A stretch of 64,000 nt of DNA, taken from contig OY970166.1 in the NCBI GenBank assembly GCA_963706595.1, positions 3,296,001-3,360,000 on the forward strand, given 5' to 3'. Shown piece by piece: positions 1 to 47,353 of this stretch. Positions within the stretch are counted from its first letter, which is position 1. Each line of letters begins with the position of its first letter. Origin of the DNA: an uncultured cyanobacterium (GTDB lineage: Bacteria; Cyanobacteriota; Cyanobacteriia; Cyanobacteriales; Nostocaceae). The position numbers and the translations under genes were made by a program. Under the pieces are notes generated by a model that worked only from the letters and a program-made list of their open reading frames with translations, did not search any database and was not told the origin of the DNA.

Positions 1-94
1 CTTAATTATCAATAATCCCTGAGAGCCAACCAGCTTAAACAATTTTCTGTAAACTTGCTTAATTGCGACAAGACAAGACTGTTAGGAGTAAATC

Positions 95-331
95 ATGGCG
101 AATATCAAACTTTCTGAACTACACGCTGCTGGTTCTGAATTATTCAACGATTCTGAAAGTTTCTTGAATGAATTCAGCGATGTAGACTCCATTTCCGGTG
201 GTGGAATTGGCGGCTACGCTGGAGGAGTTAGCAACCCAGCAACATTAATGAAGCTAGCTGAGGCATTTGTGACTGTATATGCTATTGGTCACGTGACCGT
301 GTTAGCTAAATCATTCAGCGCAAACATTTAA
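95..331 (+). CDS. RiPP precursor peptide 1 (double-glycine leader)
   Basis: Leader MANIKLSEL..SELFNDSESFLNEFSDVDSISGG, AGGAG RBS, Ser/Thr-containing hydrophobic core, paralogous to the next ORFs. Confidence 0.85.
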   Translation: MANIKLSELHAAGSELFNDSESFLNEFSDVDSISGGGIGGYAGGVSNPATLMKLAEAFVTVYAIGHVTVLAKSFSANI

Positions 332-492
332 TGGTTCTGGTTTACTACAGAGCTTGATGGTTTTCCAGGGATTAAAGATAAAAAGCTATCTATGTGAATA
401 ACATGAGCTTTTGTTATTACCAATAATCCCTGTGGTCTAGCTAAATCTAAGCAATTTTCAGTTCATTACAACAAGTCTTTTAGGAGAAAATC

Positions 493-738
493 ATGGCAAA
501 TATTACACTGTCCGAATTAAACTCTGCTGGTTCTGAATTGTTTCAAGATTCTGAAAGTTTTTTGAATGAATTCAGCGATGTAGACTCCATCTCTGGTGGT
601 CAAGGCTACGGTGGTGGACTAGGCGCTCAAGTTGCTGTCAGTGATCCTACGACACTGAATAAGCTCGCTGGCGCATTTGTGACTGTATATGCCATTGGTC
701 ATGTAACTGTGTTAGCCAAGTCATTTAGTGGCATTTAA
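493..738 (+). CDS. RiPP precursor peptide 2
   Basis: Same leader ending SISGG; conserved AFVTVYAIGHVT core; RBS. Confidence 0.85.
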   Translation: MANITLSELNSAGSELFQDSESFLNEFSDVDSISGGQGYGGGLGAQVAVSDPTTLNKLAGAFVTVYAIGHVTVLAKSFSGI

Positions 739-907
739 TGACTTTGGGTAACTGCTGAAATTGATGGCTCTTTAGGAATTAAAGGTAAAAACTAATTTAT
801 GTGATTACCAATAATTCCTAAGAGCCGACTAGACACCATCTTGATCTTCACTGAAACTAACAAGTCTTCACAAGTTCACAAGTTCACAAGTCTTTTAGGA
901 GTACATC

Positions 908-1159
908 ATGGCAAATATCACTCTTTCTGAATTACACGCTGCTGGTTCTGAACTATTCAACGATTCTGAAAGTTTCTTGAATGAATTCAGCGATGTGGAT
1001 TCCATCTCTGGTGGAGCAGCAGTTGCCGCTACAGGTGCAACCTATGCCGCCAGCAATCCTTTGACACTGACCAAATTGGCTGAAGCCTTTGTGACTGTAT
1101 ATGCCATTGAACACGTAACTATCTTGGCTAAATCCTTCAGCCTAACTGGTGTTTACTAG
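908..1159 (+). CDS. RiPP precursor peptide 3
   Basis: Same leader and core family; RBS AGGAG. Confidence 0.85.
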   Translation: MANITLSELHAAGSELFNDSESFLNEFSDVDSISGGAAVAATGATYAASNPLTLTKLAEAFVTVYAIEHVTILAKSFSLTGVY

Positions 1160-1303
1160 CTCTAGTTAACAACTCGAATAAATGGCTCTTTGGGGATGAA
1201 AGGCATGATTTGATTACCACTTATCCCCAAGAGCCAGACAGATTCAACGCTCTCGATTTTCATTGAAACAAACAAGTCTTCACAAGTCTTTTAGGAGTAC
1301 ATC

Positions 1304-1573
1304 ATGGCTAATATCACTCTTTCTGAATTACACGCTGCTGGTTCTGAACTGTTCAACGATTCTGAAAGTTTCTTGAATGAACTCAGCGATGTTAATTCCA
1401 TCTCTGGTGGACAAATTGGCTACGCTGGTGGTGCTACCGTCGCTACAGGTGCAACCTATGCCGCCAGCAATCCTTTGTCACTGACCAAGTTGGCTGAAGC
1501 CTTTGTAACTGTATATGCCATTGAACACGTAACTATCTTGGCTAAATCCTTCAGCCTAACTGGTGTTTACTAA
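1304..1573 (+). CDS. RiPP precursor peptide 4
   Basis: Same leader and core family. Confidence 0.85.
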   Translation: MANITLSELHAAGSELFNDSESFLNELSDVNSISGGQIGYAGGATVATGATYAASNPLSLTKLAEAFVTVYAIEHVTILAKSFSLTGVY

Positions 1574-1721
1574 TCACTGTGATTAGTTACTTCAAATAAA
1601 TGGCTCTTTGGGGATGTAAGGCATGATTTGATTACCAGTAATCCCCAAGAGTTAGCCAAATTCAACGCTCTCGATTTTCACTGAAACAAACAAGTTCTCA
1701 CAAGTCTTTTAGGAGTACATC

Positions 1722-1973
1722 ATGGCTAATATCACTCTTTCTGAATTACACGCTGCTGGTTCTGAACTATTCAACGATTCTGAAAGTTTCTTGAATGAAT
1801 TCAGCGATGTAGATTCCATCTCTGGTGGAGCAGTAGTTGCCGCTACAGGTGCAACCTATGCCGCCAGCAATCCTTTCACATTGACCAAGTTAGCTGAAGC
1901 CTTTGTAACTGTATATGCCATTGAACACGTAACTATGTTGGCTAAATCCTTCAGCCTAACTGGTGTTTACTAG
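1722..1973 (+). CDS. RiPP precursor peptide 5
   Basis: Near-identical to precursor 3. Confidence 0.85.
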   Translation: MANITLSELHAAGSELFNDSESFLNEFSDVDSISGGAVVAATGATYAASNPFTLTKLAEAFVTVYAIEHVTMLAKSFSLTGVY

Positions 1974-2117
1974 CTCTAGTTAACAACTCAAATAAATGGC
2001 TCTTTGGGGATTAAAGGCATGATTTGATGACCAGTAATCCCTAAGAGCCAGACAGATTCAACGCTCTCGATTTTCACTGAAATAAACAAGTCTTCACAAG
2101 TCTTTTAGGAGTACATC

Positions 2118-2369
2118 ATGGCTAATATCACTCTTTCTGAATTACACGCTGCTGGTGCTGAATTGTTCAACGATTCTGAAAGTTTCTTGAATGAATTTAG
2201 CGATGTCGATTCCATCTCTGGTGGTCAAGTTACCATCGCTACAGGTGCTACCTACGTCGCCAGCAATGCTAGTACATTGACCAAATTAGCTGAAGCTTTT
2301 GTAACTGTATATGCCATTGAACACGTAACTATCTTGGCTAAATCCTTCAGCATAAGTGGTGTTTACTAA
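2118..2369 (+). CDS. RiPP precursor peptide 6
   Basis: Same leader and core family. Confidence 0.85.
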   Translation: MANITLSELHAAGAELFNDSESFLNEFSDVDSISGGQVTIATGATYVASNASTLTKLAEAFVTVYAIEHVTILAKSFSISGVY

Positions 2370-2517
2370 TCACTGTGATTAGTTACTTCAAATAAATGGC
2401 TCTTTGGGGATTAAAGGCATGATTTGATTACCAATAATCCCTAAGAGCCAGACAGATTCAACGCTCTCCATTTTCACTGAAACAAACAAGTCTTCACAAG
2501 TCTTTTAGGAGTACATC

Positions 2518-2769
2518 ATGGCTAATATAACTCTTTCTGAATTACACGCTGCTGGTTCTGAACTATTCAACGATTCTGAAAGTTTCTTGAATGAATTCAG
2601 CGATGTAGATTCCATCTCTGGTGGAGCAGCAGTTGCTGCTATAGGTGCAACCTATGCCGCCAGCAATCCTTTCACATTGACCAAGTTAGCTGAAGCTTTT
2701 GTAACTGTATATGCCATTGAACACGTAACTATCTTGGCTAAATCCTTCAGCATAAGTGGTGTTTACTAA
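2518..2769 (+). CDS. RiPP precursor peptide 7
   Basis: Same leader and core family. Confidence 0.85.
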   Translation: MANITLSELHAAGSELFNDSESFLNEFSDVDSISGGAAVAAIGATYAASNPFTLTKLAEAFVTVYAIEHVTILAKSFSISGVY

Positions 2770-2917
2770 TCACTGTGATTAGTTACTTCAAATAAATGGC
2801 TCTTTGGGGATTAAAGGCATGATTTGATTACCAATAATCCCCAAGAGCCAGACAGACTCAACGTTCTTAATTTTTAAGAAAACAAATAAGTGTTCACAAG
2901 TCTTTTAGGAGTAATTC

Positions 2918-3163
2918 ATGGCAACTATCACTCTTGATCAACTATATGCTACTGGCTCTGAACTGTTCCACGATTCCGAAAGCTTTCTCAATGAACTGAG
3001 TGATGTCGATTCTAGCTCTAAGGATCAATACAACGTTGTCGGCGGCATAATTACATTCACTGCATTCGCTGGAGCATTTGTTGGTACGTATGCCATTGGT
3101 CATGCTACTTATGTGGCCAAGTCATATAGTCAACCATACTATGGGTATGGGCGGCGCTTCTAG
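2918..3163 (+). CDS. Divergent RiPP precursor peptide 8
   Basis: GSELFHDSESFLNELSDVDS leader; AFVGTYAIGH core; RBS. Confidence 0.75.
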   Translation: MATITLDQLYATGSELFHDSESFLNELSDVDSSSKDQYNVVGGIITFTAFAGAFVGTYAIGHATYVAKSYSQPYYGYGRRF

Positions 3164-3617
3164 CTTTGTAGTTAACTATTAATCTTGATGGCTGTCTTGA
3201 GATTAAAGGTAAAAAGTAAGCAATTCTATCTGAGCAAAAACCTCATAATACAAAATAATGTTAAACATTCAGTTTCACATAAAATATAGAATTGCCCACT
3301 CTTATCTTAATCAGGTTTTGCATAACAAAAGCCTTACAGCCAGCCAAATTTAAAAAAATATGCTGTAATTCGATAACTAAATTGAAACTTAATTAAGACT
3401 AGGATCACAATTGGTGGATAAATCTGGCGACAATCGTCAAGATTGCTCAATTACCTAAATTAGATGAATTTAATTTAGTAGTCGTGGAAGATTGGGAATA
3501 AATGACAGTTTAACCTGAGCCAGGATAGCACATTAGTTGACGAATGATTAAGCTGACACTTACTGAAAGTAGCTAGCATTAATTCATTACTCAATATTTT
3601 GTGTGGAAATCAAGTAA

Positions 3618-32323: not shown

Positions 32324-33190
32324 TCACTCCCTGGTTTCGATATCGTATAACTGGCATAAAGTGAGCAGTTTTTGTTTTAGGCGATCGCGCACATTTTCTG
32401 GCATAATCACTACACAGTCTGGCGCATATTGCATCACTTCACGACTAAACCAAAAGGTACTGGATACACGCCTGATAACTCGCCGCACTTTGGGTTTATC
32501 TGGTAGCCATTCATTGATATTGTCTTCTGGTTTCGCTTTATAGCCAAAAGCCAAGCCACCAAATATGTGCATTTCTACTTCTATCTCATCTAAGTGATTA
32601 CGCCACTCCCCAGGAATAGAAATCACCGCCGCATCTGTAATTCTATCTAAACGCAAACACCAGTTATGAATTAGTTCGGGGATATCAAAGTTTCCTTCTG
32701 TTTCTTCACACCAGCAATCAAGATATTCCCGCTTTTCGTGGGGATTAAGCTTTGCATGGCGGACGGTAAAATTAAATATACGCCCTGCTGGATCTTGATA
32801 GGAAAGCTGAAATGGTTGCTGTCGCCGGATATAGTTATCTATTTGTAAGCGCCAAGCTGGGGGGAGGTTTTCTAGGAAACCTTGAATTTCGGTTCGCAAT
32901 GGTATTGATAGTTCGCTGCGTTCGAGAAGTAAATTGGCAATAATTTGAGCTTGTTCTATTTGTCCAATATCGGTTAATGCACCAATACATCGGTGTAATG
33001 CCCTAATGCGGGCTTCTGTCCAATCATTATTATTACCGATAAGTAGCTTTCTTTGAGCGATCGCTTCTACCAGTTTCGAGATATTCGGGCGATCGCCCCA
33101 CATCATACCAAATTGTAAGGCGATCGCTTCTAGTTCCGCTTTATCGCGTTCTGTTAAAGAGAGAGTTATAGACTGACCTTTCCGACTCAT
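32324..33190 (-). CDS. CRISPR-associated WYL-domain regulator with N-terminal RHH-like domain
   Basis: SITLSL..NISKLVEAIA N-terminus; YLDCWC..LRLDRI WYL core; divergent from cas3'. Confidence 0.85.
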   Translation of the reverse strand: MSRKGQSITLSLTERDKAELEAIALQFGMMWGDRPNISKLVEAIAQRKLLIGNNNDWTEARIRALHRCIGALTDIGQIEQAQIIANLLLERSELSIPLRTEIQGFLENLPPAWRLQIDNYIRRQQPFQLSYQDPAGRIFNFTVRHAKLNPHEKREYLDCWCEETEGNFDIPELIHNWCLRLDRITDAAVISIPGEWRNHLDEIEVEMHIFGGLAFGYKAKPEDNINEWLPDKPKVRRVIRRVSSTFWFSREVMQYAPDCVVIMPENVRDRLKQKLLTLCQLYDIETRE

Positions 33191-33286
33191 ATTTATACGG
33201 ACACTTTATATGGATATATCTTGCCAATCTTTATTTTGCATGGCAATATAAGAAGTAACAACCAGTTACGGACACTATTTAAGTTT

Positions 33287-35468
33287 ATGTCCGAAGAATA
33301 CAAAATTACTCTCAAGCCTGTTTATTCTCAAACCGTCCCCACACCTGACGGAGTGAAATTACCTAAAGATTGGTCGCTTTCTTGGCATCAATTAGCTACA
33401 TTAGAAGCACTACGCGATCCAAATATTGATGTAGTATTCAACACAGCCATGACAGGCGATGGTAAAAGCTTGGCTGCATATTTAGAAGTTCTCCAAAGTC
33501 AATTTTCCGCCATTGGACTTTACCCAACTAATGAACTCGCCCGTGACCAAGAAACGCAAATTAGAGGATATATTGAACAATTCCAGCCAGAAGATGAGCC
33601 GCGTGTAGTTAGATTAAGTGGGGCTGATTTAGAAAATTATGCCGAAAATGAAGGATTGAAAAAAGCAGCAGCAATTTCTACCCTCACTAGCCAAAGAGAG
33701 GTATTACTCACTAACCCCGATATTTTTCACTACTTGCATCGAGGGGCTTATATAATTCGTGGCGATAGCCCAGATAAGTTATGGGGCAGAATTGATAAAG
33801 ATTTTGACTTATTTATTTTTGATGAGTTCCATGTTTTTGCAGCCCCTCAAATTGCCAGTGTAATTAACACAATGTTGTTAATTCGCTGTACAAATCGCCG
33901 CAAAAAATTTCTGTTTCTCTCAGCTACACCAGACACAAATTTAATTGGTAGATTAGAACAGGCAGGATTTCGTTGTCAAGTTATTAATCCTATTGCCGAA
34001 AATAAATACCAATTTCCCGAAACACCAGAAGAAGGACAGCAACTGCAAACACAGGGCTGGCGGCAGGTAGTCGCGAACAATCTCATTGAATTTTATTCCT
34101 TTAGAACCTGCTTTTAAATCTTCGGAAACTTGGCTAAAAGAAAACAGTGATTTAATTTTAGCTCAATTTCAACAGTATCCAGGTAGTAAAGGAGCAATTA
34201 TTCTCAATTCAATTGCAGCAGTCAAACGCCTAACGGTATTCTTTCAGGAAATATTCAAACCTTATAAATTAACAGTAGGAGAAAATACCGGACTTTCGGG
34301 AAAAGGCATAAAAGAGCAAAGTTTGATGGCTGATTTAGTTATTGGCACTAGCACAATTGATGTGGGGGTGGATTTTAAAATCAATTTTCTGATTTTTGAA
34401 TCATCAGATGCAGGTAACTTTATTCAGCGTTTGGGGCGATTAGGCAGACATGAAGGCTATGAGAAAAATGGTCAAATAATTAAATTTGAAAAGTTTACAG
34501 CTTTTGCCCTTGATGCCTAACTTTTTAGTAGAACGTTTATTTCAGGTAGATTCAGCACCCTTAGAGGTAAATAGTATATATGAGCGTCCATGTTTTCATA
34601 ATACAATTAGTGAAAATTATCGACAAATAAATGATTTTCGTGGTTATTATCGCCGTTGGGGAACTGTACAATCATTTTGGCTGTATTATCAATTGAGCGA
34701 TCGCACAATTAAACAACAGTATGCCCAAAGCCGAGAAACAGTTTCAAAAAGCCTGTGAGGAAGTCTTTGGAAGCAAGCTGAATCCATAGCTGGACGTAGT
34801 TTCAGGATGGGCGAAAGAATGGAAAGCACTGTCAGGTAAATCAGGAAATCCCATCGCTGACGATGCGGCTAGTTTTCGAGGTTCTAGTCCTTTGCAATGT
34901 GGTATTATACGATTTAACCGAAGAAAACGAAGCAGACAGGTTTAAAACCTACGATTTACCGGGAATTTTGGGCAATTTGGACATTGAGATGTGGACAGAG
35001 GCGGGATTTGTACGGACACTTAAAGAAACCGCACAACGCACCGGACAACCCATAGCCAAAGGTAGATTTGCTCATTGTCTAGCATTTATGAAGTTGCGTT
35101 CCTACCGCGAGGAACGGCTGAACTGGAAATTTACATATCCTGGGGACTTACAGCCAATAGCCGACGCTTGGAAAGTTCAGGTTTTAACTGGCGTGGAAAT
35201 TTGGCAACCTGACAATCAATGGATTGGTGCAATTAACAAACGACTGAAGAAGGAAGGTTTGGTTTGTTATGTAATTCGCCGTCCTGTGTCTGAGGTGCGG
35301 ATGCGGTTACGGCTACCGATGCACTTTCAGATTTATCCCATTAGTGATCAGTATAGCTTTCATGATGTTAGTGCGCCGTATGCGATCGCCTTTGGTCACT
35401 CTGCACTGCTGCTAGATACCCTCGCTTACACGTTTAAAAGCACAGGAGATGAGATATGGATTGTTTAA
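33287..35468 (+). CDS. cas3: Type I-D Cas3' helicase, broken by multiple frameshifts
   Basis: TGDGKS, DEFH, LSAT, STIDVGVD and QRLGRLGR helicase motifs spread over at least 4 ORF pieces. Confidence 0.88.
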
Positions 35469-35469
35469 C

Positions 35470-35585
35470 GTTTCAATCCCTGATAGGGATTTTAGTGATT
35501 GAAAGTCTAAAGGCGGAAGAACGAGCAGTAGTACGTTCACAGGGTATTTTTTCAATCCCTGATAGGGATTCAATGAATTTAAGCG
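35470..35585 (-). CRISPR. Mini-CRISPR: two degenerate repeats (35470-35505, 35549-35585) and one 43-nt spacer
   Basis: Both repeats keep the 21-nt AATCCCTATCAGGGATTGAAA 3' hairpin and handle of the main array repeat, in the opposite orientation. Confidence 0.85.
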
Positions 35586-35646
35586 CTTTAGACTTATACT
35601 ATAATTATAGTACACAAGTTTTACACAGGGTAAAAAAGTTTCCCTG

Positions 35647-35689
35647 GTTAATACAATGTGAACTCTATGTACTGTTCATTATTCTGACT
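35647..35689 (+). promoter_or_regulatory. Predicted promoter (-10 TACAAT at 35652-35657) and PAM-flanked target of the mini-array spacer
   Basis: GTT followed by AATACAATGTGAAC, which matches 12 of the first 14 spacer nt. Confidence 0.65.
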
Positions 35690-35699
35690 AATCAGGAAA

Positions 35700-35996
35700 A
35701 TGCAAAATCGAAATGCCGACCCCCACCTGACCAACCTTATACTCAATGCTGATTTTGAGCATCTTAACCAAGCATTGACTCTACGCCTATTTGATGAAGT
35801 CCGTGAAAACCGACGTAGTATTAGTGCGTTAAAAAGACAATTAGACGCGCTAAATGAAGATATATTACACATACTTGACAATCAAGATATGGAAATAAGC
35901 GAGTGTAAGGATCTGATTCTGAATCGTATTAGAAATCAGACTAGCGAAATTGAAGAGTTAAGGAGTCTCGTTAATTGGTATTGCATACCAGACTAA
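35700..35996 (+). CDS. Hypothetical 98-aa coiled-coil protein
   Basis: ATG with AGGA RBS; heptad-like helix; no family recognised. Confidence 0.6.
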   Translation: MQNRNADPHLTNLILNADFEHLNQALTLRLFDEVRENRRSISALKRQLDALNEDILHILDNQDMEISECKDLILNRIRNQTSEIEELRSLVNWYCIPD

Positions 35997-36055
35997 AATG
36001 AGATTTTCAACGTATTAAATGAGACAAGCCTTTACCGCCAATAACTACTGCGGCT

Positions 36056-37075
36056 ATGAATAAACCAATTTCAGACGAATACAGAAATTTACTAATAGAA
36101 GTAAAACAACGCATTCGTTCTGCCCAATATGAAGCACTGAAAGCAGTCAATAAAGAACTCATTGCCCTTTATTGGGATATTGGAAAGATGATTGTTACTC
36201 GACAACAGAATGCTACTTGGGGTAAATCAGTGGTGGAACAGTTAGCAAAAGACTTACAAGCAGAGTTTCCTGGGATTAGTGGTTTTTCTACGGCAAACCT
36301 TTGGCGAATGAGGCTTTTTTATGAAACTTATACCAAGAATGAAAAACTCGCACCATTGGTGCGAGAAATTGGATGGACTCACAATATAGTCATTTTAGAA
36401 AAGTGCAAAGATGACTTGGAACGAGAGTTTTATATCAAAATGACTCGCAAATTTGGTTGGACAAAGAATGTTTTGATTCACCAAATTGAAAATCAAACTT
36501 ATGAAAAGACTCTGTTGAATCAGACTAACTTTGATCAAACTGTTCCAGCAGAGATCCGTAATCAATTAAAACTAGCTGTCAAAGATGAATATACTTTCGA
36601 TTTCTTGGAACTAGCAGATGAACACAGCGAACGACAGCTAGAAGAAGCGATTTTGGCAAGAGTTGAACCATTTTTACAAGAAATGGGCGGGATATTTGCT
36701 TTTATCGGTAGTCAATATCGACTAGAAATTAATGATGAAGAATATTTCATAGATATTTTATTATACCATCGCTGTTTAAAGTGTTTGGTAGCAATAGAAC
36801 TAAAAATTGGTAAATTTTTACCCGAATATATTGGTAAAATGCAGTTTTATTTGGCTGTATTAGATGACACGGTAAAATTACCTGATGAAAATCCTTCCAT
36901 TGGTATAATTCTTTGTAAATCTAAGCAGAGAACCATCGTTGAATATGCATTAAAAGAATCTAATAAACCAATTGGTGTAGGAACTTATCAAATAGTTTCA
37001 ACATTGCCTGAAGAATTAAAAAATCAACTTCCAGACCCAGAGCAAGTTGCAAAACTGCTAGAAGGTTTTGAATAA
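36056..37075 (+). CDS. YhcG/DUF1016 PD-(D/E)XK nuclease-domain protein
   Basis: LYWDIG..WGKSVVEQLAKDL, KDEYTFDFL, IDILLYH..VAIELK and GKMQFY motifs. Confidence 0.9.
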   Translation: MNKPISDEYRNLLIEVKQRIRSAQYEALKAVNKELIALYWDIGKMIVTRQQNATWGKSVVEQLAKDLQAEFPGISGFSTANLWRMRLFYETYTKNEKLAPLVREIGWTHNIVILEKCKDDLEREFYIKMTRKFGWTKNVLIHQIENQTYEKTLLNQTNFDQTVPAEIRNQLKLAVKDEYTFDFLELADEHSERQLEEAILARVEPFLQEMGGIFAFIGSQYRLEINDEEYFIDILLYHRCLKCLVAIELKIGKFLPEYIGKMQFYLAVLDDTVKLPDENPSIGIILCKSKQRTIVEYALKESNKPIGVGTYQIVSTLPEELKNQLPDPEQVAKLLEGFE

Positions 37076-37168
37076 ACACTCGAATTTATAAAATTAATTA
37101 TGTGGTTAATCAATATCCGTTTTACGTGCGATAAATAAATACCTATTTAATTACATTGGATGTAGATA

Positions 37169-40100
37169 ATGAATAAAAAAACAAAACCCACCGCAAAAAA
37201 TCAACAACTGTCTTTGTTTGAAAATAATACTGAAGAAACGGAAGAATTAGAAGATGATTTCTTAAATCAAGACTTTGGCTTTGATGGTGATTCTTCAGAC
37301 CGTACCATTGAAAATGACGGCGAATTACTCACACTCAAGTTATTGCGAGAAGCAATTCAGGCGGAAAATCCTGATGATCAAGTAATGGCAGATTTTGCCG
37401 AATATGTTTTACCAAACTTGCTAAAGATAGCCATTGGTGTCACGGCTAAAGGAGGTAAATTCTTTGATGAAATCGACCAACAGCGAGAAGCAGAAGGTAA
37501 AACTAAAGTTAGGCGAGATAATGCTGCTGACCAATCTCTAAATACTCACTTACTCAATGGGTTATTTCCCGCTAATTTAATAGAAAAGCGGTTAGAAAAA
37601 CTCAATACCACAGTGCGGCGAGTGGTGAAAGAAAGAGAACGCCGCTTAGTAATTGCTGGGTTTATTTTACATGATTTTGAAAAATTTCCTGATGCACCAG
37701 AAGATTGTCGCAAGTTACCGTTAGCAGAACATCGCCAAATTATTGATCAAAAAGTTCGCCAGTTAGGACTTGATAAGTTTATCAACCCAGATAACTCAGA
37801 AGCTTATCGAGAGTATTTAGATGATTTATTGTGCATGGCTTATAATGCTCAACGACGCTGGGATACTAACTGGAATTTCTCGGAATTTGGCTTAAATCCT
37901 GTTCTCAAAGACCGTACCCTTCGCAGTCTGTCTGATTTAACTTGTTTGGCTGATTCTCTCGCTTCAATTGTTAAACATCCTCAAGATGCAGAAAATACCA
38001 GACTCCAAGAAATTATCCATAATTTGAGTGATGGACAGTTGAAATTTACCTATCACAGCATTGCTGAGAATAGAGGTGTTTTAACTAATGTGGTGAATAA
38101 TGCTTTAATTAAAGCTCATACAAGTCTTAACACTGATGAAAATATCTACTATGAACCTTTGTTATATCTGCCAACAGGTGTAATTTATTTAGCTTTGCGT
38201 AATGCGCCACCTATTGCACAAGCAGACTTATCAGACCGTGTAGTTGATAGTATTAAATCACTTTGTGCAGGTCAATTGCGCCTCAGACAAACAGGATTTG
38301 GTAGAGATGGTAAAGGTATGAAATATGCCGAATATTACAATTTATTCTTTGATGATTTAGGTTTAATGCGAGTAGCTTTAGATGCTACATTACGTATATT
38401 GAATCCAAACAAAACTTCTGTTGCTCAAAGTCGCAGTGAAAATCTGATTAAATTTCAGCAAAAAAATGTTTTATCTCCTGATTATAACTTTAACTTTACA
38501 GATGATATCCGCATCGACCAAATAGCCGAATTTGGTGATTTAATCAGTCGGAAGATTTGGGAAGAAACAGTTAATCGCATTGATGTTGCTAGGAAGAAAG
38601 ATAAAAAACTGCCAGCAGTTCCAGATTTAGATTTAACTCACAAAGTGGCAGAGTTTTGGAACTTAGCAGAATATTTACCCCCCATTCGAGAAATTCAACG
38701 CATTAATGAAAGTCTCAAAGAAAATAAGTTAAAAGGAAATACTGGCGGAGTACCTTATGAATGGTATTACCTCGCAGCGAAATATCTCGAACTTCATCCT
38801 GGAATTGAAAATGTCCGCGAAACTTGTCAGCAAGTTATCGATTACTTAGCAACTTTGATTTCTCCGATTATTTCTCAGTATGAATTACCTGATGGGTGGG
38901 ATGATTTAAGGCTTTGGGTAAATCGCGTTGTCATGTTACCAAACACAAATCAAGAATTATCACCCGAAACTCAAGTTCAGACATTTTTAGAGGAGTTAAA
39001 TAACTATAATGCTGCCAAAAAACCAGGACGAGGAAAACAACTTATTTGCTCAATTTCTCACTCAGCTTATACTGTGACTGAACAAATGGAATCAGCAGTT
39101 TTATTTACGCCGCAGGTTTATACAAATAAGCAAATGTTAGGAGGTTCTAACGCCAAGCGTAATATTTCTAGTATTGCTGGTGTAGAGATGATGCTGAGGC
39201 AAATATTAATGAATCAAACTCAAGCAGTTGGGAAACGATTTGAGGATGGTAAATATCGCTATCTCTACTTTTACCCGACTTATTACTTCACACCGGAAAC
39301 TAATAAGTTTTTGCAAAAAGCTTACAACGGTATTGCTCAAACTCGCTTTGATACCAGCGTCCGTAATCATTTTATCAGTAAGGATTTACAAGCCGATTTA
39401 TCTAGAGAAAATTACCAAAGTGTAGATAGTTTCTTAATTGACGAAAATCTCCAGGCTGACAAAGACCGCACATTTAAACTTTCTTATCCAGAAGACCAGC
39501 CTTTAACATTTTACTTCATGGCACTGCCACCAGGAAGAGATAGCACAGATACAGAATCTTGGGTAATGCCAACTTGGTTAGCCTTTGCTTTTCCGATGAT
39601 TTTAGATGTGAAAACTGTGGTTTCTGAGTCGCCAATTCCACCTTTTAACGATGGTTCTGAATTTGAGGAAAGCGTTTTCTTAGATAGTGCGCCTCATGCT
39701 TTCCGGGCTTTGGTAAAAAGAGATAGATTTCGTCTTGACTATATTCTGGAAGGTTGGCAAGAAAACGGTATTCAATACCCTGCACCCTTGAATGTGCTTA
39801 CAGCCGCTTATGCCATTCATTTAGATGTGAATGCTAGACAAGGTAAAACTGGTTACGATGCCAATTGGGGGAGATTTACAGAACTAGCAAAGGATTTTGA
39901 AACCAGTTCTTTGTATGTGTTTGCTTATCTCAATCGTTGGGTGCGTAACCAAGGAGTAGAAACAGCACGCATTGAGAAAATTAGGCTTTATGTCTATCAT
40001 TTTTACCCTTGTTTTGACCCTTATGTTAAATATGACAAAAATATGGAGCAATTAATTGTGGGAGAAGAATCAAGCCTAAATCATCCGAAAAAAGTAACAG

Positions 40101-40507
40101 ATTTATACCGCCGATTTTACCGAGCAAATAAGCGTTATAATCCCAAGTCTAATGCTGTGTTGAAACCAATAGATATCGCTGCTGAAACTATTCTTAAAGC
40201 TGACTCAAGTGTGTTTCATGGAGAAACATTAGTGGCGGCTGTAGCGGCTGAAGTCTTCAAACTCATGGATCGTGTTCATTCTTCTACTGCTGAAGGACGT
40301 TGGGTAATGAGTAAACGGGAGGAAGAACGACAAGCTGTTCTGGAGTTTGCTAAATATTTTGTACAGGAGGTATTTGAGAAATCTTTTGCAGGCGATCGCG
40401 CACGTTTAGCAGGTCGTCAACTTAACTTAATTCGAGATACTTGTGAATTTCTTTATCGCCTTGAAGATGACAAAGAAAATGCAGAAAAACTTGTAGAAAC
40501 CGAATAG
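37169..40507 (+). CDS. cas10d: Type I-D large subunit Cas10d/Csc3 with HD domain
   Basis: DQSLNTHLLNG and ILHDFEK HD motifs; size and position. Confidence 0.92.
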   Translation: MNKKTKPTAKNQQLSLFENNTEETEELEDDFLNQDFGFDGDSSDRTIENDGELLTLKLLREAIQAENPDDQVMADFAEYVLPNLLKIAIGVTAKGGKFFDEIDQQREAEGKTKVRRDNAADQSLNTHLLNGLFPANLIEKRLEKLNTTVRRVVKERERRLVIAGFILHDFEKFPDAPEDCRKLPLAEHRQIIDQKVRQLGLDKFINPDNSEAYREYLDDLLCMAYNAQRRWDTNWNFSEFGLNPVLKDRTLRSLSDLTCLADSLASIVKHPQDAENTRLQEIIHNLSDGQLKFTYHSIAENRGVLTNVVNNALIKAHTSLNTDENIYYEPLLYLPTGVIYLALRNAPPIAQADLSDRVVDSIKSLCAGQLRLRQTGFGRDGKGMKYAEYYNLFFDDLGLMRVALDATLRILNPNKTSVAQSRSENLIKFQQKNVLSPDYNFNFTDDIRIDQIAEFGDLISRKIWEETVNRIDVARKKDKKLPAVPDLDLTHKVAEFWNLAEYLPPIREIQRINESLKENKLKGNTGGVPYEWYYLAAKYLELHPGIENVRETCQQVIDYLATLISPIISQYELPDGWDDLRLWVNRVVMLPNTNQELSPETQVQTFLEELNNYNAAKKPGRGKQLICSISHSAYTVTEQMESAVLFTPQVYTNKQMLGGSNAKRNISSIAGVEMMLRQILMNQTQAVGKRFEDGKYRYLYFYPTYYFTPETNKFLQKAYNGIAQTRFDTSVRNHFISKDLQADLSRENYQSVDSFLIDENLQADKDRTFKLSYPEDQPLTFYFMALPPGRDSTDTESWVMPTWLAFAFPMILDVKTVVSESPIPPFNDGSEFEESVFLDSAPHAFRALVKRDRFRLDYILEGWQENGIQYPAPLNVLTAAYAIHLDVNARQGKTGYDANWGRFTELAKDFETSSLYVFAYLNRWVRNQGVETARIEKIRLYVYHFYPCFDPYVKYDKNMEQLIVGEESSLNHPKKVTDLYRRFYRANKRYNPKSNAVLKPIDIAAETILKADSSVFHGETLVAAVAAEVFKLMDRVHSSTAEGRWVMSKREEERQAVLEFAKYFVQEVFEKSFAGDRARLAGRQLNLIRDTCEFLYRLEDDKENAEKLVETE
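40058..40507 (+). CDS. cas11d: Cas11d small subunit, predicted internal in-frame translation of cas10d
   Basis: GGAG at 40045-40048, 9 nt before in-frame GTG 40058; 149 aa; alternative ATG at 40043. Confidence 0.6.
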   Translation: MGEESSLNHPKKVTDLYRRFYRANKRYNPKSNAVLKPIDIAAETILKADSSVFHGETLVAAVAAEVFKLMDRVHSSTAEGRWVMSKREEERQAVLEFAKYFVQEVFEKSFAGDRARLAGRQLNLIRDTCEFLYRLEDDKENAEKLVETE

Positions 40508-40559
40508 ATAAATCTGTTCTTTTGGTACATCATAAAAAATCATTCTTTGGAGACTAATT

Positions 40560-41570
40560 ATGTCATTTCTCAAAACTGTTGAATCCAAATTATTTCAATC
40601 TGAAATACCCTATAAACCAATGGGTAAATATGTCCATTTTCTCACTGTCCGCATCACTGAATCTTATCCTCTCTTTCAAACAGATGGAGAATTAAATAAA
40701 GCCAGAGTACGAGCCGGAGTCAAAGATAAGACTACAATTAGCCGTTTGTCAATGTTTAAACGCAAACAGTCTACACCAGAGCGTTTAGTTGGACGGGAAT
40801 TACTGCGTAACTATGGCTTGATGACTGCGGAAGAATGCGAATATAACGTTAGTTTTGCAATGGATAATCCTGATTGCATCATTTACGGTTTTGCTATTGG
40901 TGATTCTGGTTCTGAAAAATCTAAAGTTGTAGTAGATACCGCATTTTCAATTACATCTTTTGATCAATCACACGAAACATTTACTCTTAACGCTCCCTAT
41001 GAAAATGGTACAATGGCTTCTAAGGGTGAAAATGGTTCTAAACCGGGTGAAGTCACCAGTCGAATTAATCAGCAAGATCATATTATTCCACAGGTTTTCT
41101 TCCCTAGTATTGTCACCCTCAAAGACCCCACTGAAGCTAGTTTTCTTTACGTTTTTAACAATATCCTCAGAACGCGCCACTATGGAGCGCAGACTACCCG
41201 TACAGGTCGCGTTAGAAATGAGTTAATTGGTGTTGTATTTGCAGATGGAGAAATTACCAGTAATCTCCGTTGGACTCAAGCAATATATGATCAAATGAAG
41301 GCACAAAATACAATCAATCCTCCTGAACCTTTGGATGAAGATGATGTAATTACTGCTGCTAAAAGTGCAATTGAGGCTTTAATGGCTGATGAGTTTATTG
41401 TGCATACTGATTTCATTGGTGATGCTTTTTCACCTCTACTAAATGAAGTTAAAAGCATAGTGGGTGATGAAACAGGAATTAAGGCAGTTTTAGAAAAAGC
41501 TGATGCAGAAGCGAAAAATTATGCCAGTAAACATATTAGCAAAAAGAAAACTGCTGCTAAGGCTAAGTAA
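40560..41570 (+). CDS. cas7: Type I-D Cas7/Csc2
   Basis: RKQSTPERLVGRELLR, PDCIIYGFA and YGAQTTRTG motifs. Confidence 0.92.
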   Translation: MSFLKTVESKLFQSEIPYKPMGKYVHFLTVRITESYPLFQTDGELNKARVRAGVKDKTTISRLSMFKRKQSTPERLVGRELLRNYGLMTAEECEYNVSFAMDNPDCIIYGFAIGDSGSEKSKVVVDTAFSITSFDQSHETFTLNAPYENGTMASKGENGSKPGEVTSRINQQDHIIPQVFFPSIVTLKDPTEASFLYVFNNILRTRHYGAQTTRTGRVRNELIGVVFADGEITSNLRWTQAIYDQMKAQNTINPPEPLDEDDVITAAKSAIEALMADEFIVHTDFIGDAFSPLLNEVKSIVGDETGIKAVLEKADAEAKNYASKHISKKKTAAKAK

Positions 41571-41575
41571 CAGCT

Positions 41576-42283
41576 ATGGCTATAATCTACCGATGTCAAT
41601 TAGAACTACACGACAGCCTCTATTTTGCGACTCGTGAAATTGGGCGACTCTACGAAACAGAGCCGATAATTCATAATTACGCTCTTTGTTATGCACTGGG
41701 TTTAGTTGATAGCGAAATCTACTCTACTACGGTGGCTGAAGAACATTCCTATCGCTATTTTTGCCCTGAACAAGTGCCAAAATATGAGGAGCATTTAACC
41801 CCACTTAATCAACAGGGGATTTATATTACTCCGGCTCGTTCTCTCAAGCATTCAGCCATTCTCAATACCTGGAAGTATGCTAACAACAACTACCACGTTG
41901 AAATGGAGAAAACACAGAAGAATATTCCTAGTTTTGGCAGAGCAAAGGAAATTGCGCCAGAAAGTCAATTTGAGTTTTTCGTAATTTCTCAAAAACAAGT
42001 TAAATTACCAAAATGGGTTCGTTTGGGTAAATGGATGAGTAAGGCTGAGGTGACGGTTGCAGAGTTACCTAAATCTAAAACTATTTCAGGTGTATTTACT
42101 TGTAAATATCCTTTAAATCCTTTAGATGTGATGTTTACTCATCAAGTTATTAGCTATGATGTGGTAAATATGCCTCCAGTTAGTCTGATTCAAAATGTGC
42201 AAATGCGCGGTGAATACTATCAGTTTGAGGGTATTCCAGAATTAAAGCTTCCGGCTAGGATGGAATATCGTTTTCAAGGTTAA
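41576..42283 (+). CDS. cas5: Type I-D Cas5/Csc1
   Basis: LYFATRE..HNYALCYALG and PKWVRLGKWMSK motifs. Confidence 0.9.
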   Translation: MAIIYRCQLELHDSLYFATREIGRLYETEPIIHNYALCYALGLVDSEIYSTTVAEEHSYRYFCPEQVPKYEEHLTPLNQQGIYITPARSLKHSAILNTWKYANNNYHVEMEKTQKNIPSFGRAKEIAPESQFEFFVISQKQVKLPKWVRLGKWMSKAEVTVAELPKSKTISGVFTCKYPLNPLDVMFTHQVISYDVVNMPPVSLIQNVQMRGEYYQFEGIPELKLPARMEYRFQG

Positions 42284-42541: not shown

Positions 42542-43171
42542 TTGCTCTCTATACTGACTGTGAAACACTTTCAACAACAACCCAACGCTTTCCCTAGCGA
42601 ATACCTAAATAATTTATGGGGAGAAATTCAAGCTTGTCGCTATTTTGCTATCAATAATCTCAACCGCGATTTTGTCGGGACGAAGGGATTTTCTGTAGTA
42701 TTCAGGCGATCGCACATCCCCACAGTACAAGAAAAGTTCCCCTACTTCAAATCATACCTCGATTTGGCTCTGCAACCGGGTTGTAATGCTTTTTACCTCA
42801 ATCCGTTACAACTCAAGGAAGGTTCCCGTGTAGACCCGCACATTGACCGCTCGTTGCGTTCTTACTGCAAAACCATTGAACCGCCGGCAGTTGTCAGCGT
42901 TCTTTATGTGCGCTTACCTGAAAATATGGAAGGGGGAGAATTGGTACTGAAGTCGCAGAAACGCCAACTGGGACAAATTAAGCCCCAGGTAAATACTTTA
43001 GTTTACTTCCAAGGTGATTTAACCCACTCTGTCAACGCTGTGAAAACTCCGGGAAATCGCTTGAGTTTGGTTTGTGAACAGTATAGTTTGAGTGAAGCGG
43101 AACTTGCAGAAATCCCAGAATTTACTGTGGAATCAAGAATTGTTCAGTCCACAACAAAAAAACGCAAGTAA
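42542..43171 (+). CDS. 2OG-Fe(II) oxygenase family protein
   Basis: HID, GGEL, H.V and R.SLV jelly-roll motifs; start may be GTG 42560. Confidence 0.8.
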   Translation: MLSILTVKHFQQQPNAFPSEYLNNLWGEIQACRYFAINNLNRDFVGTKGFSVVFRRSHIPTVQEKFPYFKSYLDLALQPGCNAFYLNPLQLKEGSRVDPHIDRSLRSYCKTIEPPAVVSVLYVRLPENMEGGELVLKSQKRQLGQIKPQVNTLVYFQGDLTHSVNAVKTPGNRLSLVCEQYSLSEAELAEIPEFTVESRIVQSTTKKRK

Positions 43172-43261: not shown

Positions 43262-44089
43262 ATGCCTCATAGCTTAGTTCTCAACCTACTTCCGCAATCG
43301 TCTATCCCATCCCAGTTTCTCACAGGGAGACATCTGCACGCACTATTTTTGACCCTTGTTAGTTCTGTAGATCACGCATTAGGCGATCGCCTACATGATT
43401 CTACCGCAGATAAAGCCTTCACCCTCTCACCCCTACAAACTAATTTCCCGTCTCAGGGAACTAGGGGAATATCTAAATTGCAACACTCACATCAACAACC
43501 CATTTCCGCCGGAACCCCTTGTTGGTGGCGCATTTCTCTCTTAGATGACACACTTTTTAGCGAACTTACTCAACTCTGGCTGAATCTTAACCCCAATCAT
43601 CCTTGGCATCTTGGCCCTGCTGACTTGTATATTACCAGCATTCAAGGCACACCCCAATCTACCCAACCCTGGGCAAATGCCTGTAGCTATACCCAATTAT
43701 ACGAGCAAGCCAGCGATCGCGATCGCGCCATTGACTTTATTTTCTCCACACCTACCGCCTTTCGCCAAGGAAAATTTGACACTACCCTTCCTACGAGAGA
43801 ATGTGTTTTCAATTCCCTGCTTTCCCGGTGGAATAAATATAGTGGAATCGAATTTTCTCAATTTTCCATCGAGTCAATATTTCCCTCCTTTGTCAACATT
43901 CGTACAGAAATATTAGCAGACTCCCGCAGCAAATTTATCGGCATTGTCGGAGAAGTTAATTATCGGATTTTAGGTGAAATTGAACCCATACAAATTAAAC
44001 AAATTAACGCTTTAGCCGAATTTGCTTTATATGCAGGTGTAGGACGAAAAACACCAATGGGTATGGGGATGATGCGGCGACGACATTAA
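43262..44089 (+). CDS. cas6: Cas6 endoribonuclease
   Basis: C-terminal YAGVGRKTPMGMG glycine-rich loop. Confidence 0.93.
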   Translation: MPHSLVLNLLPQSSIPSQFLTGRHLHALFLTLVSSVDHALGDRLHDSTADKAFTLSPLQTNFPSQGTRGISKLQHSHQQPISAGTPCWWRISLLDDTLFSELTQLWLNLNPNHPWHLGPADLYITSIQGTPQSTQPWANACSYTQLYEQASDRDRAIDFIFSTPTAFRQGKFDTTLPTRECVFNSLLSRWNKYSGIEFSQFSIESIFPSFVNIRTEILADSRSKFIGIVGEVNYRILGEIEPIQIKQINALAEFALYAGVGRKTPMGMGMMRRRH

Positions 44090-46362: not shown

Positions 46363-47353
46363 GTTCCAATTACTAATAATCCCTATCAGGGATTGAAACC
46401 AATGATTATGAAGCTGCTGCTATGGTTACAGCCTTCCAATTACTAATAATCCCTATCAGGGATTGAAACCAAAATTAAGGCAGAGGTTTCAATGTAAGGT
46501 TGAAAGTTCCAATTACTAATAATCCCTATCAGGGATTGAAACTTATCTTTGTATTTGTCGGGTAAAACACTTAACAGTTCCAATTACTAATAATCCCTAT
46601 CAGGGATTGAAACAAATACTTAGGGCAAATGCTAGCGGGTGAATTATCTGTTCCAATTACTAATAATCCCTATCAGGGATTGAAACTTTAGTATCCACTT
46701 GTTTCAGCAAACACTCGCTTAAGTTCCAATTACTAATAATCCCTATCAGGGATTGAAACACTATAATTTAATAGAAGAAAAGTGGGGAGACTCAGTTCCA
46801 ATTACTAATAATCCCTATCAGGGATTGAAACAATGGCATATCTTCATCCTCTTCTGTTGGTTCTGGGTGTTCCAATTACTAATAATCCCTATCAGGGATT
46901 GAAACTGAAGCCACGTATGAATCTGGAAATTTTGTATTCAAGTTCCAATTACTAATAATCCCTATCAGGGATTGAAACTAAGCAATTTGACCGTGAGCGG
47001 GGGACAGGTGACACGTGTTCCAATTACTAATAATCCCTATCAGGGATTGAAACCGCCGACTCTGAAGGTGAATGGGTAGCTTGGATTGGGCATCGTTCCA
47101 ATTACTAATAATCCCTATCAGGGATTGAAACGCCAGTATTCAGAGGTAAGCTCATCATTCCAATCAAGTTCCAATTACTAATAATCCCTATCAGGGATTG
47201 AAACGGGCAAATTCACGATGGCTTGCCACAGGCTACCAGTTCCAATTACTAATAATCCCTATCAGGGATTGAAACAGCAGTTCTTTTCCTTGTATTTGAA
47301 TGTATATTTGCCACATGTTCCAATTACTAATAATCCCTATCAGGGATTGAAAT
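46363..47353 (+). CRISPR. Type I-D CRISPR array: 14 repeats of 37 nt, 13 spacers
   Basis: Repeat GTTCCAATTACTAATAATCCCTATCAGGGATTGAAAC; repeat 2 starts with C; terminal repeat ends GAAAT; spacers 33-41 nt. Confidence 0.98.

Follow-up and report, generated by a model that had tools for sequence, protein, structure and literature searches.

A predicted regulatory mini-CRISPR beside a decayed cas3' gene in the type I-D locus of a Nostocaceae cyanobacterium

Experimental evidence for self-regulating mini-CRISPRs exists for types I-B, I-E, I-F and V-A. In CreTA, Cas3 is reportedly dispensable for repression. For type I-D, mini-arrays lying between cas3 and cas10d and targeting the promoters of cas10d or of 'cargo' genes were predicted computationally, according to the accessible text of Shmakov et al. 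2023 (PMC10120712), and I-D mini-arrays are also mentioned in that of Liu et al. 2023 (bioRxiv 10.1101/2023.03.10.532045). An experimental test of a self-regulating mini-CRISPR in type I-D or in cyanobacteria was not found in the literature searched. The Anabaena Cas6 paper (bioRxiv 10.1101/2020.04.14.041012) mentions neither cas3 nor cas10d nor a mini-array, and the text supplements of PMC10120712 hold no Nostoc, Anabaena or I-D rows.

The element described here resembles the I-D cases in the accessible text of Shmakov et al. 2023 in several respects. It lies between cas3 and cas10d with a predicted transcription opposite to cas3, its seed adjoins the repeat that gives the handle, and a partial match flanked by the cognate PAM is found in the promoter of a cargo gene (in their cases toxin-antitoxin pairs and regulators). 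The position is fixed, and spacers, targets and cargo are shuffled. As far as that text goes, there is no difference in principle from their computational prediction, and the element is another case of the predicted I-D regulatory mini-array type rather than the first of its kind. The first-pass annotation of this DNA, made from the sequence only, had thus overrated its novelty. What the present comparison adds is a pairing profile by position (with dips at 6, 12 and 18, and ending at about nt 16), counts of the GTT and GTC PAMs, a random scatter of cassettes on the cas3' tree, a tight linkage between spacer families and small-ORF families, and a cas3' gene that has decayed while Cascade was retained.

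CreTA of Haloarcula hispanica (type I-B; bioRxiv 10.1101/2023.03.10.532045) and CrePA of Acinetobacter (type I-F; bioRxiv 10.1101/2024.01.05.574328), as described in the available parts of both preprints, are likewise degenerate two-repeat mini-CRISPRs with a PAM-flanked match, confined to the seed, in the promoter of a small neighbouring gene. A further likeness, proposed here from sequence, would be that Cascade represses without cleaving, in a module guarding the effector genes. Subtype and host differ; moreover, the toxin is an RNA in the case of CreT and a phage-derived protein in that of CreP, whereas the payload here is an orphan coiled-coil protein (a winged-helix protein in sister cassettes) whose toxicity is hypothetical. 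CreR, in the available text of Liu et al. 2023 (bioRxiv 10.1101/2023.03.10.532045), is also a degenerate mini-CRISPR by cas3, with a target adjoining the promoter upstream of the effector genes. A negative feedback that senses the status of Cascade and crRNA, as we propose for the present locus, would be shared with it, and I-D elements appear in Figure S7 of that work. However, the tests of CreR reported there concern only I-B, I-E and V-A, and in our locus two non-cas genes, the first of which co-varies with the guide, separate the target from cas10d.

The window analysed was a 64,000-nt stretch of contig OY970166.1 from an uncultured Nostocaceae cyanobacterium, to which all coordinates refer. 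It carries a type I-D set of cas10d, csc2, csc1, cas6, cas3', cas4-cas1-cas2 and an array, all above NCBIfam/Pfam cut-offs. The genes cas10d (37169-40507, TIGR03174; a single copy in the genome), cas7/csc2 (40560-41570, TIGR03157) and cas5/csc1 (41576-42283, TIGR03159) are on the plus strand, full length and covered over the full NCBIfam profiles. An intact cas6 (43262-44089, plus strand; Pfam CRISPR_Cas6_N, 4e-76; TIGR01877) follows, and the canonical I-D array (46363-47353, plus strand) has 14 repeats of 37 nt. Upstream of cas10d, yhcG (36056-37075, plus strand) encodes DUF1016_N and YhcG PDDEXK nuclease domains (Pfam, 5.5e-62 and 5.6e-49); most related loci likewise have this gene after the cassette.

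The helicase gene cas3' (33221-35468, plus strand), previously taken as intact, is a pseudogene split over frames 2, 0, 1 and 0, and it is the sole I-D cas3' copy of the genome. TIGR03158 matches two separate ORFs in it (profile positions 1-239 and 243-357). By comparison with two relatives, five 1-nt insertions and one 1-nt deletion were located between about 34071 and 34904. The open C-terminal frame is 507-508 aa in 28 of 30 family loci and 222 aa in the window (locus L033 was unscored). As cas3' has decayed, the entire system might be in the course of being lost, which is a counterpoint to the explanation that we prefer below.

The mini-array is located inside the cas locus, about 10.8 kb from the main array and on the strand opposite to cas3', and consists of two repeats around one spacer. 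The cas3' stop codon TAA (35466-35468) leaves a gap of 1 nt to repeat 2 (35470-35505, minus strand), which is 36 nt long and near-complete, matches CRISPR-DR5 of Rfam with 45 bits against a gathering score of 40, and is identical to the array repeat over its final 22 nt. Repeat 1 (35549-35585, minus strand) has a degenerate 5' half and ends in A instead of C, with an intact hairpin and 8-nt handle; its CRISPR-DR5 match (35550-35584, minus strand) reaches 30.7 bits, under the gathering score. Over hairpin and handle, both units are identical to the array repeat at 21/21 nt, and both hairpins form in the predicted fold. The corresponding 21-mer, AATCCCTATCAGGGATTGAAA, occurs 16 times in the window, with 0 copies expected by chance: 14 in the plus-strand array and two on the minus strand, at 35471-35491 and 35550-35570. 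Between the repeats lies a spacer-like guide of 43 nt (35506-35548, minus strand, read from 35548 to 35506), the seed of which comprises nt 1-14 (35548 to 35535). The first-pass annotation had described a minus-strand mini-array with a 43-nt spacer 1 nt past the cas3' stop, and all of its coordinates and counts were reproduced. The guide sequence is conserved with few changes in five genomes of four genera. A plus-strand ORF of 98 codons (35456-35752) that spans the mini-array was considered as a gene and rejected, as its substitutions were not concentrated at third codon positions; it is stop-free in 5/5 loci with the same (type-A) spacer.

Two candidate -10 boxes of a mini-array promoter were read from the sequence on the minus strand at 35598-35609, TATAAT (35609 to 35604) and TATAGT (35603 to 35598). 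The former, proposed earlier as the promoter box, is indeed present; the TAnnnT hexamer closest to repeat 1, which is kept in 5/5 type-A loci, is the neighbouring TATAGT. On the plus strand, a GTT PAM (35647-35649) directly precedes the seed target (35650-35663), which matches spacer nt 1-14 at 12 of 14 positions with mismatches at 6 and 7, in agreement with the initial reading. The target contains the -10-like TACAAT (35652-35657) already pointed out there. Among the five type-A loci the PAM is GTT in four and GTC in one, and the TAnnnT hexamer at the -10 site of the seed target is kept in all five. A sigma-70 consensus scan flagged neither proposed promoter and called a single, unrelated minus-strand site; such sigma-70 and terminator consensus scans are uninformative for cyanobacterial promoters that have no -35 box. 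In this genome, position 7 holds the only informative seed mismatch. The substitution also converts a TACACT-like -10 box into TACAAT, and repression may therefore be less strong than in the relatives. An imperfect palindrome, CAGGGTAAA / TTTCCCTG (35626-35646, unstranded), lies immediately 5' of the PAM, between the two proposed divergent promoters; its arms vary together in two relatives, and it is possibly an operator.

Further similarity to the guide is found at 35670-35689 (plus strand), where spacer nt 19-38 match at 15/20 positions after a 2-nt offset, with mismatches at spacer positions 24, 27, 30, 34 and 36. This count was reproduced, but 179 of 5000 shuffles score as high, which is marginal when taken alone, and independent support for the match was not obtained. 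The similarity is seen in 5/5 type-A loci, and the mismatch positions differ among them by hand reading of the alignment. A hand comparison of the type-A genomes revealed no shared 6-nt periodicity and no clear advantage of own over foreign spacers. The distal match was therefore rejected as evidence of pairing; it probably reflects common origin.

In the window, 0.5 14-mers with at most 2 mismatches to the seed are expected in 64 kb and three were found, the spacer itself included; within this window, 3 of 100 shuffles reach three such matches. The case for more than chance rests on the comparison across genomes rather than on the window alone. A survey of 301 genomes sampled from the same family turned up mini-arrays of this type in at least 41, belonging to 19 genera. 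Among the 30 best family loci, 29 have a two-repeat mini-array, and in 29/30 the last repeat begins 1 nt past the cas3' stop. The spacers fall into at least six unrelated families with eight distinct seeds, and they are constant within families, unlike array spacers. With a threshold of GTN plus at most one mismatch across 10 informative nt, 25 of 29 loci are matched by their own spacer, and every such match lies 54-155 nt upstream of repeat 1. Foreign spacers match in 1 of 520 locus-spacer pairs, and shuffled seeds in 62 of 5800 trials. The four remaining loci (L014, L025, L030 and L037) have no PAM-flanked target within 450 nt even with 2 mismatches. The first-pass annotation had suggested looking for covariation of spacer and target in related loci, and it was found across at least six unrelated spacer families. 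Given this covariation and the conserved position, the mini-array is not a product of chance as judged from the relatives, and the central proposal of repression guided by Cascade gained support from the contrast between own and foreign spacers.

When the search was run without a PAM, GTT (30) or GTC (16) preceded 46 of 52 seed matches. This fits the GTN PAM put forward initially; GTT and GTC are given as the preferred I-D PAMs in the accessible part of PMC8216271. The fraction of loci matched was at least 0.87 at spacer positions 1-5 and 7-9 and 0.69-0.73 at positions 10-11 and 13-16, fell to 0.23, 0.31 and 0.04 at positions 6, 12 and 18, and was mostly below 0.5 from position 17 on. In both this profile and the PAM-free tally, L035 and L038 count as misses, the relaxed repeat search having picked the wrong strand; their targets were found in the GTN-seed search. 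The dips at 6, 12 and 18, down to the level of chance, are the pattern expected of Cas7 flipping every sixth base. Mismatches at every sixth base, noted before in this single genome, thus hold at these positions across loci and fail in the offset distal part. Cleavage requires about 23 paired nt, as published. Pairing that falls to chance beyond about nt 16 would be too short for it, which points to a block rather than a cut.

These comparisons also bear on whether the element might be a non-functional relic, either a decayed array end or an accidental self-targeting spacer tolerated alongside a broken cas3', with the palindromic repeat after the stop being at most a cas3' terminator hairpin. 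The pseudogene state of cas3' in this genome would suit such an origin. Repeat 2 read on the plus strand is a hairpin followed by TTTT, 1 nt past the stop, and one deletion variant, L017, retains repeat 2 as the only remnant of its mini-array. However, the terminator scan did not call repeat 2, the cas3' C-terminal frame is open in the 28 scored relatives, and neither the spread of the mini-array over so many genomes nor the constancy of spacers within families, nor the covariation of spacer, PAM and target across families, is what a relic would leave. We consider this origin very improbable.

The first gene downstream of the target, ORF35700 (35700-35996, plus strand), encodes an orphan protein of 98 aa predicted to form a single long helix (coiled coil). 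AlphaFold2 placed a helix over residues 19-94 with a mean pLDDT of 87. The protein matched no Pfam or NCBIfam family, no membrane segment was predicted in it, and the ESM Atlas gave no useful lead (best score 0.85). Its homologues form four clusters in 5.8 billion proteins, its own protein counted. ORF35700 occurs solely with the type-A spacer, and every spacer family is paired with its own small first ORF. The small ORF of cassette types B and D has a winged-helix fold, with mostly winged-helix proteins as top Foldseek matches at weak E values (0.03-0.3); a search of PDB sequences with its profile found no significant match (best E = 0.085). This family is present in 29 of 301 genomes, and these provide an independent sample, picked via the small ORF: in 26 of them a mini-array runs divergently within 600 nt, and in 24 a target with PAM and seed lies between ORF and mini-array. 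On the cas3' tree, cassette types change 18 times against a mean of 18.2 after shuffling, which corresponds to random scatter. Among deletion variants, L017 lost the ORF together with the seed of the guide, and L037 lost the ORF while the mini-array stayed. None of the loci L009-L038 keeps the small ORF without a mini-array.

Taken together, the element is likely a regulatory mini-CRISPR of the I-D system that encodes a crRNA-like RNA, with which Cascade would repress the adjacent promoter without cutting. Transcription of the mini-array would rely on a -10 box near 35598-35609 and run antisense to cas3'. Cas6 would then cut both hairpins, as the exact conservation of hairpin and handle suggests, and repeat 2 would supply the 3' end of the RNA. 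After loading into a Cascade of Cas10d, Csc2 and Csc1, the RNA would direct binding to the GTT-flanked partial protospacer at 35650-35663, where the pairing is read from sequence and covariation. This target overlaps the putative divergent promoter of ORF35700 at its -10 box and start region. Pairing over roughly the first 14-16 nt may block transcription rather than lead to cleavage, for which about 23 paired nt are needed according to published work. The main payload under control would be the type-specific small gene of each cassette, in this case ORF35700. Such a circuit would report the presence of functional Cascade; if Cascade were lost or inhibited, the payload would be released from repression, probably along with the Cascade genes.

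How far the control would extend depends on the downstream genes. ORF35700 to csc1 (35700-42283) are co-oriented, with gaps of 60 nt before yhcG and 94 nt before cas10d, and no plus-strand terminator-like site was predicted between 35950 and 37250. Given this layout, yhcG and cas10d-csc2-csc1 probably share some of the control. The same arrangement could be taken to mean pure autoregulation of Cascade as in CreR, in which the effector operon would depend mainly on the targeted promoter, and the small ORF and yhcG would be passengers inserted ahead of cas10d. Autorepression of the CreR type was shown in I-B, I-E and V-A and creA-like elements are noted in I-D, according to the available text of bioRxiv 10.1101/2023.03.10.532045, and I-D mini-arrays targeting the cas10d promoter are reported in that of Shmakov et al. 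2023 (PMC10120712). Yet the small ORF varies with the spacer family and is almost always there, which is unexpected of passengers, and the target lies 1.5 kb upstream of cas10d. Furthermore, cas10d persists in L017, which has lost the cassette promoter, and is probably transcribed from a second promoter as well. Pure autoregulation is in our judgement somewhat unlikely.

A specific version of the preferred reading, repression by Cascade, is that of an addiction or anti-anti-CRISPR guard like CreTA or CrePA, in which a harmful small ORF is silenced by Cascade with the crRNA-like RNA and cells stop growing on loss or inhibition of Cascade. The small ORF moves with spacer and target as one cassette, the random scatter of which on the cas3' tree resembles that of mobile toxin-antitoxin-like modules. 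The loss of the ORF in L017 and L037, with no ORF left without its mini-array, and the rarity of ORF35700 as an orphan are in line with a harmful product. A decayed cas3' beside intact Cascade genes and cas6 would be expected if the cell were addicted to Cascade and not to Cas3. In the available parts of the respective texts, type I-F protein toxins are repressed by such RNAs (bioRxiv 10.1101/2024.01.05.574328), and toxin-antitoxin systems are enriched at I-D mini-arrays (Shmakov et al. 2023, PMC10120712). On the other hand, ORF35700 has neither a family nor a membrane segment that would speak for toxicity, and three distant homologues of the type B/D small ORF have no recognisable mini-array nearby. 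The winged-helix fold of the type B/D proteins, suggested by weak Foldseek matches, is typical of DNA-binding regulators and not of toxins. A harmful payload is a tentative proposal, and we regard it as somewhat unlikely, to the same degree as pure autoregulation.

At a single fixed position, the locus and its relatives present a natural series in which guide, promoter and payload come as at least six orthogonal sets. This series would let one test which pairing I-D Cascade needs to bind without cutting, whether the payload proteins are toxins or regulators, and whether such modules retain Cascade genes after loss of Cas3'. For CRISPR interference in filamentous cyanobacteria, the guide-promoter pairs would be natural orthogonal candidates. 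A more speculative idea, which we think improbable, is that the cas3'-cas10d junction of Nostocaceae I-D loci serves as a site for interchangeable guard cassettes, each made up of a matched guide RNA, PAM-flanked promoter and small protein particular to that cassette (a coiled coil here and winged-helix proteins in others). Swapped by recombination, these cassettes would provide new outputs on loss of Cascade, such as growth arrest or a transcriptional alarm, and the guard would have kept Cascade and cas6 in place after cas3' decayed. If this were true, the CRISPR system of this cyanobacterium would now be mainly a transcriptional regulator.

The mini-array, encoded on the minus strand, immediately follows the cas3' stop codon (TAA, 35466-35468, plus strand). 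Repeat 2 (35505 to 35470) is 36 nt long and reproduces almost completely the 37-nt repeat of the CRISPR array in the same locus (46363-47353, plus strand, 14 repeats). Repeat 1 (35585 to 35549) has a degenerate 5' half and A, not C, as its last base; a 43-nt spacer separates the two. A 21-mer comprising hairpin and handle was common to both mini-array repeats and the array (16 matches in the window, 14 of them in the array, against a chance expectation of none), and the hairpin formed in the predicted fold of both repeats. Rfam CRISPR-DR5 scored repeat 2 at 45 bits (gathering score 40) and repeat 1 at 30.7 bits, both on the minus strand. On the plus strand, the PAM GTT (35647-35649) stands directly 5' of a 14-mer identical to spacer nt 1-14 at 12 of 14 positions (mismatches at 6 and 7), and spacer nt 19-38 match 35670-35689 at 15 of 20 positions with a 2-nt offset. 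Recomputation reproduced every number of the first-pass annotation, for repeats, spacer, GTT, seed and distal match alike.

Just 5' of repeat 1, AAGTCTAAAG (35585-35594, minus strand) has its complement at the spacer's 3' end, CTTTAGACTT (35503-35512); the two form a long stem in the predicted fold, and the former may in part precede the transcription start. A comparable 8-nt complementarity is visible in cassettes of another spacer family, type B. A 98-codon plus-strand ORF (35456-35752), which runs across mini-array and promoter and is stop-free in all five loci of the window's own family (type A), is probably no gene, as its substitutions are not enriched at third codon positions. Contig C1 of the window's own genome (G000) carries at least six further arrays with the same repeat core, of which about 103 copies occur in the genome; there is one I-D cas locus.

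Taken by itself, the window makes an only suggestive case against chance. By chance, 64 kb should contain 0.5 copies of a 14-mer with at most two mismatches; the search gave three, the spacer itself included, a count reached in 3 of 100 shuffles. The distal similarity was equalled by 179 of 5000 shuffles. The decisive evidence against chance is the sequence comparison with relatives. When 35440-35720 was searched against 301 genomes of the same family, full-length matches were obtained in four other genomes from three other genera, at 77-85% identity, and many further genomes matched the cas3' end and mini-array only. A two-repeat mini-array antisense to cas3' was present in 29 of the 30 best loci; in 29 of these 30 the last repeat lay exactly 1 nt past the cas3' stop, one locus being unscored by the script. 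With a second sample chosen via the small ORF included, the mini-array was found in at least 41 of the 301 genomes, from 19 genera.

Eight different seeds occur among the 29 mini-arrays, with no sequence relationship between the main families. Both strands of each complete 3-kb locus were scanned for GT-flanked sites with at most one mismatch in the ten seed positions counted as informative (1-5 and 7-11). Such a site for the locus's own spacer was found in 25 of 29 loci, and all of these sites fall 54-155 nt upstream of repeat 1, within the divergent intergenic region. Spacers of foreign families matched in 1 of 520 locus-spacer pairs and shuffled seeds in 62 of 5800 trials. With the PAM requirement off, 46 of 52 seed matches still followed GTT (30) or GTC (16), the PAMs favoured by type I-D (PMC8216271), and the others CTG (5) or AAT (1). 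No target was detected in L014, L025, L030 and L037, even allowing two mismatches; in L037 the target region is deleted. Ten type-B cassettes (L016, L018, L020-L024, L028, L029 and L036) have two back-to-back PAM-flanked seed sites, one per strand and few nt apart, of which the same-strand site pairs further, to about nt 23.

The excess of own over foreign matches supports what the first-pass annotation had proposed, crRNA-guided repression of the adjacent promoter by Cascade. From these comparisons we consider it probable that a crRNA-like guide directs I-D Cascade to the cassette promoter and that repression occurs without cutting. The mini-array would be transcribed and processed by Cas6, and the guide, once loaded, would take Cascade to the PAM-flanked partial protospacer, where the bound complex would sit on the -10/start region of the cassette promoter. 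Across loci, spacer positions 1-5 and 7-9 are matched in a fraction of at least 0.87, and positions 10-11 and 13-16 in 0.69-0.73; the fraction drops to 0.23 at position 6, 0.31 at 12 and 0.04 at 18, and is mostly below 0.5 from 17 onward. The dips at 6, 12 and 18 give the footprint expected if Cas7 flips out every sixth base; the similar periodicity suggested earlier for the distal part of the spacer does not hold. As judged from this profile, pairing is limited to about 14-16 nt. For I-D editing activity about 23 PAM-proximal nt matter, excepting positions 1, 6, 12 and 18 (PMC8216271); binding without cleavage would therefore be expected from the shorter pairing.

In the alignment of the five type-A loci (A1), the PAM is GTT in four and GTC in one, and seed position 6 is mismatched in all. 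Each has a TAnnnT hexamer within the seed target, consistent with a -10 box, and the ORF start codon follows about 43-50 nt downstream. The window target has one informative mismatch, at position 7, and the same change makes the hexamer TACAAT; two type-A relatives have no informative seed mismatch, so repression may be weaker here than in those two. The mini-array promoter contains two tandem hexamers. TATAAT (35609 to 35604), previously taken as its -10 box, is present, but the hexamer kept in all five loci is the neighbouring TATAGT (35603 to 35598). Neither promoter was picked up by a simple sigma-70 scan; as that scan requires a -35 box, we attach no weight to the result. Between the divergent promoters and immediately 5' of the PAM lies an imperfect palindrome, CAGGGTAAA / TTTCCCTG (35626-35646), both arms of which co-change in two relatives. 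Read as its reverse complement, the left-arm region has 9 nt in common with the spacer (nt 3-11), but no GTN PAM. The palindrome could serve as an operator or represent a second target that has decayed.

The first gene after the target, ORF35700 (plus strand, from 35700), encodes 98 aa. No family was found for it, and a search of 5.8 billion proteins returned four clusters only, its own protein included; it is predicted to form a single long helix (residues 19-94, mean pLDDT 87). It is followed on the plus strand by yhcG (DUF1016/PDDEXK, 36056-37075), cas10d, csc2, csc1, a 2OG-Fe(II) oxygenase-family ORF (42542-43171, Pfam 8.5e-09) inserted before cas6, and then cas6, cas4, cas1, cas2 and the CRISPR array. 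In related loci the first gene varies with the spacer family; further downstream come an optional DUF433/DUF5615 pair, yhcG, an optional nucleotidyltransferase/HepT pair and cas10d. In types B and D, two other families, the first gene encodes a 66-69-aa protein with a predicted winged-helix fold (AlphaFold2 mean pLDDT 83), for which Foldseek ranked mainly winged-helix proteins highest, with numerous transcription regulators among them, at E-values of only 0.03-0.3. Single copies of a gene of this family were found in 29 of 301 genomes; 26 of the 29 have a divergent mini-array no more than 600 nt away, and in 24 a PAM-plus-seed target lies between the two. One distant member (31% identity) has a wholly different spacer-target pair that still matches. 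Since the first gene tracks the spacer family and the small ORF is linked to the mini-array, guide, target and small gene constitute one cassette. In a tree built from the 3'-terminal 1.5 kb of cas3' we counted 18 cassette-type changes against a shuffled mean of 18.2, a random-like scatter which indicates that cassettes were exchanged between loci.

Two deletion variants bear on what such repression would serve. L017 (1530-2060, compared with window 36614-37094) has a type-A-like spacer 3' end that runs directly into the 3' part of yhcG; it has lost repeat 1, seed, promoter and small ORF and kept cas10d. L037 is the converse, with the mini-array kept and the target, small ORF and 5' part of yhcG lost. 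CreR-like feedback on the Cascade genes would agree with the same-strand gene order and with the result that no plus-strand terminator-like site was predicted within 35950-37250; against it speak the small ORF's strict linkage to the guide and the fact that L017 kept cas10d after losing the promoter. If instead the small protein were harmful and silenced by guide and Cascade, as in the CreTA/CrePA guard systems, the cassette behaviour and the co-loss patterns in both variants would be explained; against this, the sister cassettes carry regulator-like winged-helix proteins.

The first-pass annotation treated cas3' as a gene; here it is a frameshifted pseudogene. Hits of the I-D cas3' model are split between two ORFs, and the gene (33221-35468) spans four frames. 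Compared with two relatives it has five 1-nt insertions and one 1-nt deletion, at about 34071-34904, none within a long homopolymer run. The C-terminal open frame is 507-508 aa in 28 of the 30 loci and 222 aa in the window, with one locus unscored. The genome has one cas10d and no second I-D cas3' was found in it. General sequencing error is an unlikely cause of the indels, because cas10d (1112 aa), csc2, csc1 and cas6 are full length; the adaptation genes are also intact. That Cascade outlives cas3' here is a further point for a harmful protein kept under guard. A mini-array serving as relic or terminator only is very improbable, since it is kept in genomes where the C-terminal frame of cas3' is open. 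A divergent gene 5' of cas3' (32324-33190, minus strand) with a WCX (WYL-associated) domain is a candidate protein regulator of the locus. Farther away, 73-3220 holds about eight tandem copies of a unit of about 400 bp, each opening with a conserved small-ORF start (ATGGC.AATAT...); these are a tandem family of small genes.

Repeat-like sequences adjoining cas3 in I-D loci were described by Shmakov et al. (2023; PMC10120712), who reported I-D mini-arrays that are transcribed in the direction opposite to cas3 and partially match PAM-flanked sites at the cas10d promoter. They distinguished two I-D Cas3 clades, with mini-arrays targeting promoters of cargo genes (toxin-antitoxin pairs, regulators) located between mini-array and cas10d, in regions termed hotspots of gene shuffling. 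The window locus has the same architecture as these cargo mini-arrays, and is therefore a well-supported example of an element already predicted computationally. CreR was tested in types I-B, I-E and V-A by Liu et al. (2023; bioRxiv 10.1101/2023.03.10.532045), where creA-like elements in I-D are mentioned; no experimental I-D or cyanobacterial case was found in the limited collection of literature searched. The locus is a good starting point for testing regulation of this kind experimentally in type I-D for the first time. The related loci offer a natural panel of orthogonal cassettes, and in the window's genome cas3' was lost while Cascade was kept.
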